In this document: in pieces, positions 11,637 through 58,981 of the stretch | How the letters are laid out: every line of letters starts with the position of its first letter | Numbering within the stretch: the first letter of the stretch is position 1 | From: Escherichia coli | Lineage (GTDB): Bacteria; Pseudomonadota; Gammaproteobacteria; Enterobacterales; Enterobacteriaceae | Direction: 5' to 3' (one strand) | Assembly: GCF_024223415.1 (NCBI RefSeq) | Contig: NZ_CP100500.1 | Length of the DNA: 64,000 bases | Translations under genes and position numbers: made by a program | The notes under the pieces: generated by a model | Database searches by the model: none | What the model saw: the letters and a program-made list of their open reading frames with translations, nothing else | What the model was told of the DNA's origin: nothing

Positions 11637-12203
11637 ATGCTTGAACTTAATGCTAAAACCACTGCGCTGGTGGTGATCGATTTACAAGAAGGCATCTTAC
11701 CTTTTGCCGGTGGTCCACATACTGCCGATGAGGTAGTTAATCGCGCCGGGAAGCTGGCGGCGAAATTTCGCGCCAGCGGTCAGCCCGTGTTTCTGGTGCG
11801 AGTTGGCTGGTCTGCCGATTACGCCGAAGCATTAAAACAGCCGGTTGATGCCCCCTCCCCCGCTAAAGTGTTGCCCGAAAACTGGTGGCAACATCCAGCT
11901 GTATTAGGTGCAACTGACAGTGATATCGAAATCATCAAACGTCAGTGGGGTGCGTTTTACGGTACGGATCTGGAGTTGCAATTACGCCGCCGAGGTATCG
12001 ATACAATAGTGTTATGTGGGATCTCGACCAATATCGGTGTTGAATCCACCGCCCGCAATGCCTGGGAACTTGGCTTTAATCTGGTGATTGCCGAAGACGC
12101 CTGTAGTGCCGCCAGCGCCGAGCAACACAATAACAGCATTAATCATATCTACCCGCGCATCGCCCGTGTGCGTAGCGTGGAAGAGATCCTTCACGCGTTA
12201 TGA
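11637..12203 (+). CDS. yecD: Isochorismatase-family hydrolase YecD
   Basis: ATG at 11637 with AGGA RBS gives 188 aa starting [13 protein letters not shown]; stop overlaps yecE start (ATGA). Confidence 0.9.
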
Positions 12204-12310
12204 TTTACATCGGTCTACCGCAATGGTCGCATCCTAAATGGGTGCGGTTGGGGATCACCAGCCTTGAAGAGTATGCCCGCCACTTTAACTGCGTGATACG
12301 GGATTTTTAA
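12200..12310 (+). pseudogene. yecE: yecE 5' fragment (36 codons) truncated by prophage insertion; reading frame leaves host sequence after codon 32 (..RHFNCV)
   Basis: [32 protein letters not shown] matches remembered YecE N-terminus, then IRDF-stop in phage DNA. Confidence 0.85.
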
Positions 12311-12423
12311 AAATCACTAAAGAACGCCCAAGAGCATGAGTTTTCTTTAGCATAATCAAAGCGTTGAATTTCCATGCCATATGAAAATCGGCAAAGTTCA
12401 TATGTAACAAAGTGTCCCAATCA

Positions 12424-12472
12424 TGCCCCAAATTGCCCCACAACAGACATTTTTGCCCCATGCATGCCCCAA
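12424..12472. repeat. Four copies of TGCCCCA within about 50 bp just inside the prophage left end
   Basis: ATGCCCCA / TTGCCCCA / TTGCCCCA / ATGCCCCA direct repeats; candidate integrase arm-type or regulator sites. Confidence 0.4.
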
Positions 12473-12492
12473 AAAATCACTTTCCCTCACCC

Positions 12493-12542
12493 TTGACACT
12501 GTTTATCCATACAGTTAAAAATAATACTGTATACAAACACAG
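12493..12542 (+). promoter_or_regulatory. Sigma70-like promoter (TTGACA -35) overlapped by two LexA boxes, upstream of dinI-like gene
   Basis: CTGT-N8-ACAG at 12499-12514 and 12527-12542; perfect TTGACA at 12493-12498. Confidence 0.65.
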
Positions 12543-12557
12543 TGTAGAGGGATTTTT

Positions 12558-12806
12558 ATGCGTATTGAAATCTGTATCGCTAAAGAAAAATTCAGCAAAA
12601 TGCCAAAAGGCTCTGTACCTGCTCTACAACAGGAAATGTCTCGCCGTATCAGAAAACAATACGACGATGTGGAGGTTATAGTAAAATCCGCCAGTAATGA
12701 CGGACTGACCATTTTAAGAGCCGTAGATAAAGAAAACGCTCAGAAGTTCATACAGGAAACGCTGCAGGAAGTCTGGGAAACTGCTGATGACTGGTTTTTT
12801 CACTAA
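12558..12806 (+). CDS. DinI-family DNA damage-inducible protein (prophage-encoded)
   Basis: 82 aa; resembles remembered DinI family (MRIE..IAK, C-terminal ETxQExWExADDWF); SOS boxes upstream. Confidence 0.75.
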
Positions 12807-56876: not shown

Positions 56877-56940
56877 TGTTCAACCCCGGTCGTCGCCCAC
56901 CGGCTATAGTGGCGGCGACCATGATTAGCGAACGACGCTC

Positions 56941-57189
56941 ATGGCAAGACTTATTCTGCTCACTGAGTGGGCAAAAGAGGAATTCAGTGAACCGGTCCCT
57001 ACTCCGGGTACGTTAAGTAAATACGCTAAAGCCGGAATGATATTTCCTCTCCCCAAAAAAGTAGGAAGGCACTGGCGAGTGGATCCACGCGCTCGCTTTG
57101 TCGGAATGGTAAACAAGCCGGAGGTGATCGCCACAGATCACCCTGCTTTGAAGAGGATACTGGAAGATGGCGCGCCCGCGAAAATATAA
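56941..57189 (+). CDS. xis: Excisionase-like protein
   Basis: 82 aa basic protein overlapping int start. Confidence 0.65.
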   Translation: MARLILLTEWAKEEFSEPVPTPGTLSKYAKAGMIFPLPKKVGRHWRVDPRARFVGMVNKPEVIATDHPALKRILEDGAPAKI

Positions 57190-58297
57190 AACCGATGTTC
57201 CGGGTTTATCTCCGTATTTTGACAAAAGAAATAACAAAGTTTACTGGCGTTACAGGCATCCCATCACAGGTAAAAATCATGGACTCGGCAGTATTGACCA
57301 GAAACTGGCGGAAACCATTGCAGCAGAAGCGAACAGCCGTCTTGCCAGACAACAAATGGAGCAAATTCTCAGTCTGCAGGAGAAAATTATTAGTGATACC
57401 GGCGGCGCATCAACCGTTTCCATTTTTCTGAATAATTACAGAAAAATTCAACAGGAAAGATATGAGAACGGAGAGATCAAACTCAGCACGCTGAAGCAAA
57501 AAGCGGCTCCTCTCAGGGTGTTTGATGAACGTTTTGGAGCCAGGCCGCTAGATGCCATAACCGTAAAAGATGTGGTATCGGTGCTGGAAGAATACAAGGC
57601 AAAGGGACATAACAGAATGGGACAAATTTTCAGGAAGGTATTGATCGATGTTTTCCGGGAGGCTCAACAAACGGGTGATGTTCCGCCAGGCTTTAACCCG
57701 GCTGAATCGGCAAAAAAACCGCAAGTGCGGATATCAAGACAGCGACTGACTTTTGATGAGTGGATGATGATTTATAACGCAGCGGAAAAGGATGGTTACT
57801 TTTTACAGCGCGGCATGCTGCTGGCACTGATGACGGGCCAGCGTCTTTCGGATATTTGCAAAATGCAGTTTTCGGATATCCGGGATGGTTACCTTCATGT
57901 CGAACAGCAAAAAACAGGAGCCCGGATAGCCATTCCTCTGGCTCTGCGTTGCGACAAATTAAATCTTACCCTGGGTGACGTGGTGTCATCCTGTCGTGAT
58001 TACATCCTTAGTCCGTGGTTATTGCACCATCATCACGCTAAGGGGATGGGTAAGCGCGGCGGGATGGTTAAACCAGCAACATTAACAGTCGCATTTAAAA
58101 AAGCCCGGGATTCTGTGGATTACAACTGGCGTGCTAATGGCACGCCACCCTCTTTCCATGAGCAAAGATCTTTATCAGAACGATTGTTCAGAGAACAGGG
58201 AATTGATACCAAAATTTTGCTGGGCCATTCGAATCAAAAAATGACCGATATTTACAACGACGCACGCGGTAAAGAGTGGAAAAAACTGGTTATTTGA
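57167..58297 (+). CDS. int: Tyrosine-type site-specific integrase
   Basis: 376 aa; adjacent to prophage end at ompW 3' end. Confidence 0.88.
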   Translation: MARPRKYKTDVPGLSPYFDKRNNKVYWRYRHPITGKNHGLGSIDQKLAETIAAEANSRLARQQMEQILSLQEKIISDTGGASTVSIFLNNYRKIQQERYENGEIKLSTLKQKAAPLRVFDERFGARPLDAITVKDVVSVLEEYKAKGHNRMGQIFRKVLIDVFREAQQTGDVPPGFNPAESAKKPQVRISRQRLTFDEWMMIYNAAEKDGYFLQRGMLLALMTGQRLSDICKMQFSDIRDGYLHVEQQKTGARIAIPLALRCDKLNLTLGDVVSSCRDYILSPWLLHHHHAKGMGKRGGMVKPATLTVAFKKARDSVDYNWRANGTPPSFHEQRSLSERLFREQGIDTKILLGHSNQKMTDIYNDARGKEWKKLVI

Positions 58298-58310
58298 TAA
58301 CCAGTTTTGC
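58283..58310 (+). terminator. Hairpin AACTGGTTA-TTTGA-TAACCAGTT plus TTTT overlapping int stop
   Basis: 9-bp inverted repeat then T-run. Confidence 0.5.
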
Positions 58311-58340
58311 AGAAGAGTTTTGCAGAGGTTTTGCAGAGAA
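58306..58340. repeat. Three tandem copies of GTTTTGCAGA(R) between int stop and ompW stop
   Basis: AGTTTTGCAGAAG AGTTTTGCAGAG GTTTTGCAGAG. Confidence 0.6.
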
Positions 58341-58342
58341 AA

Positions 58343-58981
58343 TTAGAAGCGGTATCCGGCAGAGAACATAAACACCCACGGATCCAGTCGTACCGCGTCT
58401 TTCACGGGGGTTCCATTAAATTTATAGCTGGCGGTGGTGTCGATATCCATGTACCACACTGACATATTAACCAACCAGTCACGGTTAATCAGATAATCAA
58501 CCCCCACCTGCCCGGCAGCTCCCCAGGAATCTTTCAGACTGAGATCGGAAAGCCCCGCCTCTTTGCCATGATCGTTAAATCCATTATCAAAGAAGGTGGT
58601 GTAGTTAATACCTGCCCCAACATAAGGACGGAATTTGCTGCTGGCATCACCAAAATACCACTGCGCCATCAGTGTTGGCGGCAGATGATGAACGGTTGCA
58701 ATATCGCCGGTCGCCCGGGTGCCGATTTTATGGCGGAACGGCGTCGCTGCCAGTAATTCCACACCAATGTTGTCGGTCGCCATATAAGTAAACGTCAGGC
58801 CCAGTTGAGTGTTATTGGTCACGCTGAATCCACCCAGACTTCCTAACGTACCACCAGCACCTTCTGTAGGACGTACGGTTGCAGAACCTGCACGCATAAA
58901 AAATTCTCCTGCTTCATGCGCAAAGGCACTGCCAGAGAGAAGTGTTGTTACTGCCAAAGCCGCCACTGTTAACTTTTTCAT
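58343..58981 (-). CDS. ompW: Outer membrane protein W
   Basis: 212 aa; MKKLTVAALAVTTLLSGSAFA signal; ends ..FSAGYRF. Confidence 0.93.
   Translation of the reverse strand: MKKLTVAALAVTTLLSGSAFAHEAGEFFMRAGSATVRPTEGAGGTLGSLGGFSVTNNTQLGLTFTYMATDNIGVELLAATPFRHKIGTRATGDIATVHHLPPTLMAQWYFGDASSKFRPYVGAGINYTTFFDNGFNDHGKEAGLSDLSLKDSWGAAGQVGVDYLINRDWLVNMSVWYMDIDTTASYKFNGTPVKDAVRLDPWVFMFSAGYRF

Follow-up and report, generated by a model that had tools for sequence, protein, structure and literature searches.

How did one prophage come to have one end in yecE and the other at ompW, two loci that lie far apart on the Escherichia coli chromosome? This question is raised by the 64-kb stretch of E. coli DNA analysed here in full and referred to as the window. 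In K-12, dif (1,590,750-1,590,777) lies between ompW (1,314,020-1,314,658, plus strand) and yecE (1,951,395-1,952,213, plus strand); a distance of 637 kb separates the flanks found in the window, and dif is 276 kb away from ompW and 361 kb away from yecE, all in K-12 coordinates and not in those of the source genome. The K-12 coordinates bear out the positions given in the first-pass annotation of this DNA, which had placed the two loci far apart on opposite sides of the terminus and had explained the join by recombination between two inversely oriented prophages, one at each locus.

The left end of the prophage lies in yecE

The left chromosomal flank (1..12199), identified by sequence comparison and from the annotations of K-12 and TUM1886, carries lpxM, mepM, znuA, znuCB, ruvBA, yebB, ruvC, yebC, nudB, aspS, and yecD in the gene order and orientation of K-12 1.939-1.951 Mb, and it is 100.0% identical to NCTC9112 and O78 strain 3. 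It is followed on the plus strand by yecE' (12200..12295), which is identical to nucleotides 1-96 of K-12 yecE (96 nt, 32 codons) and is cut by the prophage. Identity to K-12 stops at 12295/12296, so that yecE is indeed broken after codon 32 as had been claimed; in genomes with an uninterrupted yecE the match to the window also ends at 12295, and a partial yecE CDS is annotated at the corresponding place in TUM1886 and ECCNB12-2.

At this boundary lies the yecE-type att core CCGCCACTTTAACTGCGTGA (12277..12296, plus strand), which occurs once in the window in a search allowing up to 3 mismatches and resembles the 21-bp yecE/attB-in-PPompW sequence described in PMC8112680. Beyond the core, the segment at 12297..12491 is, by homology to the yecE prophage of TUM1886, the attR-side phage arm specific to yecE-integrated prophages: the TUM1886 yecE prophage matches the window contiguously from yecD through 12297-12491, and the TUM1886 ompW prophage has no match to this segment, its homology beginning at 12492. 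The left junction sequence is that of a normal yecE attR junction. The 64-kb window contains neither the yecE-type integrase (1314 bp) nor the 3' portion of yecE, both of which occur in TUM1886 and ECCNB12-2.

The right end of the prophage lies at ompW

At the other end, a full-length excisionase gene (56941-57189, plus strand; Pfam Exc) and a full-length ompW-type tyrosine integrase gene (57167-58297, plus strand; PHROG integrase families, Pfam Arm-DNA-bind_1 and Phage_integrase) are followed by ompW (58343-58981, minus strand), an intact ORF of 212 amino acids; the Pfam domains of integrase and excisionase were read on identical sequence from a relative. The gap between the integrase stop and ompW is 45 bp, which confirms the earlier description of an integrase right beside the intact 3' end of ompW. 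The integrase and its neighbouring DNA match the PPompW elements of STEC O145:H28, intE included, at ~91% DNA identity.

These PPompW elements have a 121-bp att at the ompW 3' end (PMC8112680). In the window, the ompW-type attL (58343..58463, minus strand), delimited by divergence from K-12 ompW, is a phage-supplied ompW 3' end of ~121 nt. As in a normal ompW attL, the final ~100-120 nt of the gene diverge from K-12, with the differences concentrated at gene positions ~543-639, and the ompW 3' end of the window has only 75.6% identity to the chromosomal fragment of ompW that is displaced in TUM1886. No second copy of the 121-bp ompW 3' att occurs anywhere in the 64-kb window, and the far end of the prophage bears the yecE-type att. 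With one yecE-type core and one ompW 3' att in the window, the att ends are mismatched, as the first-pass annotation had suspected.

The right chromosomal flank (58343..64000; K-12 annotation and genome comparison) comprises ompW (minus strand), yciC, yciB, and yciA (plus), tonB (minus), and yciI and kch (plus), and corresponds to K-12 1.309-1.3147 Mb reversed. Its identity is 99.6% to O78 strain 3 and NCTC9112 (the best among complete E. coli genomes), 99.995% to GCA_900482235.1, and 100% to Logan SRR19977217. Because the nearest genomes, NCTC9112 and O78 strain 3, are the same for both flanks, the two flanks come from one genetic background.

Alignment of the window to K-12, as proposed in the earlier annotation, recovered both junctions as well as the reversed right flank. 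The left flank is in K-12 orientation and the right flank is reversed, such that, along the window, K-12 coordinates rise as far as yecE' and fall from ompW onward, which is the geometry of an inversion and supports the proposed recombination between inversely oriented yecE and ompW prophages. In four complete genomes (NCTC9112, O78 strain 3, TUM1886, and ECCNB12-2), the same flanks are on opposite strands and separated by 0.71-0.80 Mb, and together with the K-12 comparison this establishes that the ompW block is inverted relative to the yecE block. GC skew has negative values in the left flank and in the prophage and values close to zero in the short right flank, and is non-discriminating.

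Gene content of the prophage

A single continuous and complete lambdoid prophage of 46 kb fills the space between both junctions. The right-end accessory module (12558..14887), which is also found at the ends of yecE, ompW, and smpB/ssrA prophages, consists of a dinI-like gene (12558-12806, plus strand; PHROG DinI), a sigma-factor-like HTH gene (13190-13645, minus strand; PGAP name of the TUM1886 homologue), and a YadA-like adhesin gene (13706-14887, minus strand; PHROG adhesin/tail and PGAP name of the TUM1886 homologue). The late region (15497..38503), all on the minus strand and assigned by PHROG, includes a tail-fibre assembly gene with a collagen-repeat tail fibre (15497-17892), J (19154-22663), the tape measure (25452-28013), the major capsid (31350-32378), the portal (34315-35907), the large terminase (36094-38022), and the small terminase, which ends at 38503. 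Head and tail genes from phage 21 and lambda-like phages are ~94.8% identical to it, and it is homologous to the yecE as well as the ompW prophages of TUM1886 and ECCNB12-2. In an exact-protein look-up, the portal and DinI proteins were widespread; the J, tape measure, tail fibre, and gpI-like proteins of the window have no record in a collection of 15 billion proteins.

The lysis genes (40454..41451, minus strand) encode an Rz-like lysis protein (40454-40936) and an endolysin (40918-41451; PHROG endolysin), with Pfam Phage_lysis and Phage_lysozyme read on the near-identical sequence of a relative. Between Q and the lysis genes we saw only small ORFs and two prophage tRNA genes with anticodons UUU and CAU (42797..42950, minus strand; ARAGORN), and no Stx or other toxin cargo. 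The early/regulatory region (43161..54303; PHROG, and Pfam on near-identical relatives) is that of an ompW-type (Rac-like) phage, with genes for Q, RusA, DUF968/HNH, a hok-like product, a P-like helicase loader, a DnaT/O-like replication protein, YdaT, a repressor pair, Rha, and Kil. It is 97.7-98.6% identical to the TUM1886 ompW prophage and has no counterpart in the TUM1886 yecE prophage. A RecE-type exonuclease VIII gene (54423..56876, plus strand; PHROG exonuclease, Pfam Exonuc_VIII) lies between this region and the excisionase gene.

Parent-type prophage pairs and the probable crossover interval

Suitable parents for a recombination of this kind exist: TUM1886 (NZ_CP128970.1) and ECCNB12-2 (NZ_CP033635.1) both have one prophage in yecE and another at ompW, in the ancestral arrangement and in inverted orientation, with the flanks 0.73-0.75 Mb apart. 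In these surrogate genomes, in which the parental inverted homology was measured, the two prophages share 25.1 kb on opposite strands in TUM1886 (including 17.96 kb at 97.3% and 4.2 kb at 99.93%) and 20.5 kb on opposite strands in ECCNB12-2. The late genes common to such pairs thus amount to 20-25 kb at 96-99.9% identity, and in their inverted arrangement they are an ideal recombination substrate. At 96-99% identity, the TUM1886 and ECCNB12-2 pairs share with the window both att sites, the DinI/sigma-like/YadA end module, the late genes, and the ompW-type early region; in contrast to the window, which is a recombinant join, the att ends match in each of their prophages, and each encodes an integrase of its own.

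The first-pass annotation had assigned the tail and late genes to the yecE phage and the int region to the ompW phage, and the distribution of alleles agrees with this assignment. In addition to the yecE-only arm at 12297-12491, a sliding 500-bp comparison found yecE-type tail alleles at 15.3, 19.8-20.8, and 28.3-29.3 kb, with 2 mismatches to the yecE-type versus 133 to the ompW-type at 28796-29295. Over 29.3-37.3 kb the two reference prophages, at yecE and at ompW, do not differ from each other, and to the right of ~38.7 kb the window matches the ompW-type only. The genome GCA_900482235.1, near-clonal to the window (8 SNPs and 0 gaps over 33.7 kb), follows it from 64000 down to 40334 and then diverges sharply, and six of its seven prophage SNPs cluster at 40505-41008. 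Because the late proteins of the window are absent from the 15-billion-protein collection, GCA_900482235.1 is not demonstrable as a carrier of the yecE parent.

From the allele comparison and the divergence of this relative, we infer a crossover interval between yecE-type and ompW-type parents at 29300..41010; the crossover probably lies between 29.3 and 41.0 kb, in the head/terminase/lysis stretch, with the bracket derived from surrogate parents. A phage at serU in TUM9803, which has a third integrase, has near the same body as the window from 17.2 to 56.9 kb and itself combines 'yecE-type' tail alleles with an 'ompW-type' early region, and for this reason the allele-based placement is only suggestive. 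Given this mixture and the identity of the reference parents over 29.3-37.3 kb, the allele comparison yields a bracket only. The module comparison that the earlier annotation had put forward to locate an internal breakpoint therefore recovered the switch from yecE-type to ompW-type and brackets the probable breakpoint at 29.3-41 kb.

Discussion

The two junctions, the inverted geometry of the flanks, and the mismatched att sites of the window, together with the suitable parent pairs in other genomes, are the observations that an explanation of this locus has to accommodate. We suggest that the window probably represents one of the two recombinant joins left by a large inversion (about 0.64-0.8 Mb) spanning the replication terminus. 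In our model, an ancestor would have had one lambdoid prophage in yecE and another at the ompW 3' end; being on opposite replichores, the two would have been in inverted orientation and would have had in common some 20-30 kb of near-identical late genes (lysis, head, and tail). One reciprocal homologous crossover in these genes, by way of RecA or phage RecE/RecT, would then have inverted the intervening chromosome. The product would consist of the attR arm and late genes of the yecE phage joined to the early region, excisionase, and integrase of the ompW phage, and the reciprocal hybrid would be located elsewhere in the same genome. That second join would lead from yciE and a fragment of ompW into late genes of the ompW phage, then into the early genes and integrase of the yecE phage, and would end in the 3' portion of yecE. 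Precise excision of the hybrid prophage would presumably be lost, because the integrase would have only one of its two att partners nearby.

An assembly artefact, in which the source strain retains the ancestral two-prophage arrangement and the assembler switched copies inside the 20-30 kb inverted repeat, would create a false join that looks like a real inversion in sequence alone. We consider this unlikely, given that the geometry is that expected of a real event, that real events of this kind are frequent (PMC8743559), and that the window sequence is clean and unbroken, its ORFs being intact throughout the candidate interval. It would nevertheless fit with several observations: the repeat common to such prophage pairs (20-25 kb) exceeds many long reads; the assembly of GCA_900482235.1 breaks within the same prophage, inside the terminase gene, and shows odd tandem copies, as well as an N, at the position where it leaves the window; and the join is unique among complete genomes. 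A stepping-stone query of 17.5 kb, composed of both flanks and ten 800-bp prophage pieces and thus able to detect only hybrids with a similar prophage body, found the same join in none of 5,426 complete E. coli genomes, with 59% coverage at the best single place, and the join consequently has no independent replicate.

The same end product could have arisen in another order, in which an incoming yecE-targeting phage recombined homologously into the ompW prophage, leaving its attP there, after which the integrase of that incoming phage joined this attP to the distant, inverted attB in yecE; the inversion step would then be site-specific rather than homologous. In favour of this order, ompW prophages interact with yecE-type phages through att-like sites (PMC8112680), and the closest relatives of the left flank all have an empty yecE, suggesting that the yecE phage is a recent arrival. 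The left junction is also a precise att-core junction, the same as in normal yecE attR junctions, but ordinary integration with a subsequent homologous inversion would predict it equally. The alternative order requires two rare events, while genomes in which both prophages are integrated are seen directly, and the attB-like 21-bp site is absent inside the window prophage; we therefore regard it as highly improbable. A third possibility, that a yecE-type phage inserted into an attB-like site of an ompW prophage, giving a prophage-in-prophage or tandem arrangement with no chromosomal inversion, follows a mechanism documented for PPompW elements in O145:H28 (PMC8112680). We rejected it as next to impossible, because the window has a single yecE-type core and no attB-in-PP site, and because the DNA to the left of the junction is genuine chromosome (yecD-aspS-ruv, 12.2 kb, 100% identical to relatives).

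If the inversion is accepted, a further question is whether it is a fixed scar or a live, reversible polymorphism in the lineage. The latter is, in our estimate, quite doubtful. The two hybrids would keep about 25 kb of inverted homology, with att partners ~0.7 Mb apart and inverted, and RecA/RecE- or integrase-driven flipping could yield mixed populations. The isoforms would differ in replichore balance (a shift of dif by ~85 kb in K-12 coordinates) and in the ability of either prophage to be excised or induced. In O157 strain 9000, mixed isoforms were tested for by counting the reads in support of each orientation (PMC8743559).

That E. coli undergoes prophage-prophage inversions across Ter is well documented (PMC8743559, PMC8112680, PMC8767318, PMC10132054), and the window would be a fresh instance of this type of event. 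Large rearrangements bounded by prophages have been described in E. coli O157:H7 (Fitzgerald et al. 2021, PMC8743559) and were first shown for EDL933. Like the window, they involve inversion across Ter between lambdoid prophages with more than 5 kb of inverted homology and leave hybrids at the junctions; unlike them, the lineage of the window is not O157 (its nearest genomes are NCTC9112 and O78 strain 3), the pair is yecE-ompW, and the event is known here from its sequence only. In STEC O145:H28, inversions occur that have the ompW prophage (PPompW) at one end and the ydfJ prophage at the other (Nakamura et al. 2021, PMC8112680). These, too, are symmetric about the ori-ter axis, and one partner is of the PPompW family with the 121-bp att and with an integrase and early region ~91% identical to those of the window, but the partner locus in the window is yecE, not ydfJ. 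The window prophage also differs from the O145:H28 PPompW elements in being without the 21-bp attB-in-PP site, and no Stx phage or effector cargo was seen in it.

In practical terms, prophage pairs with 20-25 kb of inverted homology are spots for assembly error. If the inversion is real, the yecE-ompW pair, in a non-O157 lineage, would be added to the prophage pairs known to invert the terminus region of E. coli; neither this added pair nor the warning about assembly alters current understanding. For the prophages themselves, the event would strand both with mismatched att ends, probably blocking their normal excision.

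Inversion geometry and prophage ends

Our results support a model whereby the single continuous lambdoid prophage at 12296-58342 is the product of recombination between a yecE prophage and an ompW prophage, and we consider it likely that the inversion this entails is real in the source genome. The left flank (1-12199; lpxM, mepM, znuACB, ruvBA, yebB, ruvC, yebC, nudB, aspS, and yecD) has the order and orientation of K-12 1.939-1.951 Mb, and the right flank beyond ompW (yciC, yciB, yciA, tonB, yciI, and kch) runs in reverse of K-12 (from 1.3147 to 1.309 Mb). K-12 coordinates thus ascend to yecE', the 5' fragment of yecE, and then descend from ompW, a strand switch that is obtainable only by an inversion-type rearrangement. 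In K-12, 637 kb separate ompW (1,314,020) from yecE (1,951,395) with dif (1,590,750) in between, in agreement with the first-pass annotation, which had placed the two loci several hundred kb apart on opposite sides of the terminus with the ompW block inverted relative to the yecE block. The flanks lie on opposite strands, 0.71-0.80 Mb apart, in all four complete genomes inspected (NCTC9112, O78 strain 3, TUM1886, and ECCNB12-2). For either flank, the two closest genomes are NCTC9112 and O78 strain 3; the flanks therefore represent one genetic background and no cross-strain chimera. Identity to these strains is 100.0% for the left flank (1-12199) versus 99.6% for 58300-64000, and much of this excess divergence falls in the phage-replaced 3' end of ompW.

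At the left junction, agreement with K-12 yecE runs from the start of the gene at 12200 over exactly 96 nt (32 codons), and the sequence switches at 12295/12296; genomes with an intact yecE likewise cease to match at 12295. The yecE-type att core, CCGCCACTTTAACTGCGTGA, lies at 12277-12296, and no second core was found in the window with up to three mismatches tolerated. At the right junction, ompW (58343-58981, minus strand) is intact, with its stop codon 45 bp from that of the integrase (58297). This is an ordinary ompW attL, in which the final ~100-120 nt of ompW are phage-supplied and divergent from K-12, consistent with the 121-bp att of PPompW prophages, the family at the ompW 3' end (PMC8112680); the window holds no second copy of the ompW-type att. 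The interruption of yecE after codon 32 and the integrase immediately beside ompW, both described earlier, and the mismatched att ends suggested there as a possibility are thereby all confirmed. The attR comes from one phage type, and attL, xis, and int from another; because no partner site for the cognate integrase lies close by, it is reasonable to expect that precise excision would fail. Three tandem copies of AGTTTTGCAGAG (58303-58339; period 11-13 bp) occupy the 45-bp gap between the integrase and ompW stop codons and may be integrase-binding repeats at attL.

Prophage content

From left to right, the prophage comprises an end module of dinI-like, sigma-like, and YadA-like genes (12558-14887); late genes for tail fibres, J, tape measure, capsid, portal, and terminase, all on the minus strand, with ~94.8% identity to phage 21 and lambda-like phages; lysis genes with two tRNA genes, Q, RusA, and DUF968; replication and immunity genes, Rha, and Kil; and, on the plus strand, a RecE-type exonuclease, excisionase, and tyrosine integrase. 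The right half belongs to the PPompW family (~91% identity, intE included).

The end module caps prophages at three att sites, yecE, ompW, and smpB/ssrA (L005, the ompW prophage of TUM1886, at 1-4200; loci L026-L028 and L032), its DinI protein is identical between yecE and smpB/ssrA prophages, and it looks like mobile cargo at the tail-fibre end. Immediately preceding the dinI-like gene is a LexA-box-like palindrome, CTGTATACAAACACAG (12524-12545), which suggests that the module is under SOS control. Within the tail-fibre gene (16087-17892), a 45-bp collagen-like repeat is present at 16362-17427 in ~14 plus 3 copies, a copy number that differs from that of the relatives' homologues (457-556 aa versus 601 aa). 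The tRNA at 42797-42873 (minus strand) is a tRNA-Lys with anticodon UUU (ARAGORN), as also in the near-clonal GCA_900482235.1, and its homologue in the ompW prophages of TUM1886 and ECCNB12-2 is a tRNA-Arg (UCU). The eight differences between the two forms include one at the middle anticodon base and paired anticodon-stem changes, and may reflect a switch of decoding identity.

Parent-type prophages and probable crossover position

Pairs of the parent types exist in other genomes. In TUM1886 (NZ_CP128970.1), the yecE prophage has a 1314-bp integrase adjoining the 3' part of yecE, a helicase/toprim early region, lambda-like late genes and, at its other end, YadA-like, sigma-like, and DinI genes adjoining yecE'. 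The ompW prophage of the same strain begins with a displaced ompW fragment by yciE, followed by DinI, sigma-like, and YadA-like genes, late genes as in the yecE prophage, a Rac-like early region, exo, xis, and int adjoining ompW. ECCNB12-2 (NZ_CP033635.1) has the same pair, and in both strains the members of the pair occupy opposite strands and share long homology, which totals 25.1 kb in TUM1886 (17.96 kb of it at 97.3% and a further 4.2 kb at 99.93%) and 20.5 kb in ECCNB12-2. A single crossover between such prophages would yield exactly the structure of the window together with a reciprocal hybrid.

A similar body, nearly as in the window at 17.2-56.9 kb, is found in TUM9803 (L006; NZ_CP135671.1 2,235,659-2,283,148) at tRNA-Ser (serU) beside mtfA, with a third, different and frameshifted integrase, a group II intron, and IS elements. 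A single phage backbone is thus in circulation with three or more integration modules.

The module comparison that the first-pass annotation proposed as a test for an internal breakpoint suggests where one probably lies. Positions 12297-12491 match yecE-type ends only, ompW-type homology starts at 12492, and beyond ~38.7 kb ompW-type prophages are the only match. In 500-bp steps against the yecE and ompW prophages of TUM1886 and ECCNB12-2, every step at which the references differ shows the yecE-type allele in the window: at 15.3, 19.8, and 28.8 kb, there are 16, 1, and 2 mismatches to the yecE type as against 51, 34, and 133 to the ompW type, respectively. At 29.3-37.3 kb, the types are indistinguishable. 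As independent evidence, contig UDHK01000001.1 of the near-clonal GCA_900482235.1 matches from 64000 down to 40334 with eight substitutions and no gaps, six of the seven prophage substitutions clustering at 40505-41008; past this point the match breaks off sharply, and the contig continues with a second lysis cassette and a terminase of just 92% identity. Together, these comparisons place the crossover probably within ~29.3-41.0 kb, a bracket rather than proof because surrogates stand in for the true parents and the TUM9803 phage has the same body across 17.2-56.9 kb. In the ompW prophage of GCA_900482235.1, the lysis cassette is present twice in tandem at 14936-20940 of contig UDHK01000001.1 (L012), which corresponds to the region left of 40334. 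A ~370-bp segment there (equivalent to 40228-40613) occurs three times, an N lies exactly where the sequence leaves that of the window, and the contig terminates within the terminase gene; either the locus is truly rearranged or the assembly is at fault.

Alternative explanations and precedents

The stepping-stone query (17.5 kb), in which ten 800-bp pieces of the prophage were set between the two flanks to make any hybrid locus score as one place, did not find the same join in 5,426 complete E. coli genomes: the best place covered at most 59% of it, and the top matches paired the right flank with an ordinary ompW prophage or the left flank with an ordinary yecE prophage. The exact J, tape-measure, tail-fibre, and gpI-like proteins of the window have no record in a large protein-position index. 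The event is therefore strain-specific or an artefact. Identical sequence would result if the 20-30 kb inverted repeat had been mis-assembled, which we regard as unlikely; the GCA_900482235.1 assembly breaks in the same prophage, and its point of divergence is marked by an N and irregular tandem copies. The geometry, the att ends, and the inverted parent-type pairs in TUM1886 and ECCNB12-2 support the inversion proposed in the first-pass annotation. The same structure would also result from the other order of events, in which an incoming yecE-type phage entered an ompW prophage by homology and its integrase then caused an inversion by attP x attB(yecE) recombination, a route we consider more improbable still. 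Integration of one prophage into another is ruled out by the 12.2 kb of genuine chromosome on the left and the single yecE-type core.

An inversion between yecE and ompW prophages agrees with known events. Terminus-spanning inversions by recombination between inversely oriented homologous prophages have good precedent: in E. coli O157:H7, they arise even within single-colony cultures (PMC8743559), and they have also been described in O121:H19 between ydfJ and ttcA or dusA prophages (PMC8767318), in CC119 (PMC10132054), and in O145:H28, where the ompW prophage is paired with that at ydfJ (PMC8112680) rather than, as here, with that at yecE. The literature retrieved contains no report of the yecE-ompW pair; the inversion would be a new instance of a documented event, by a mechanism that is not new.
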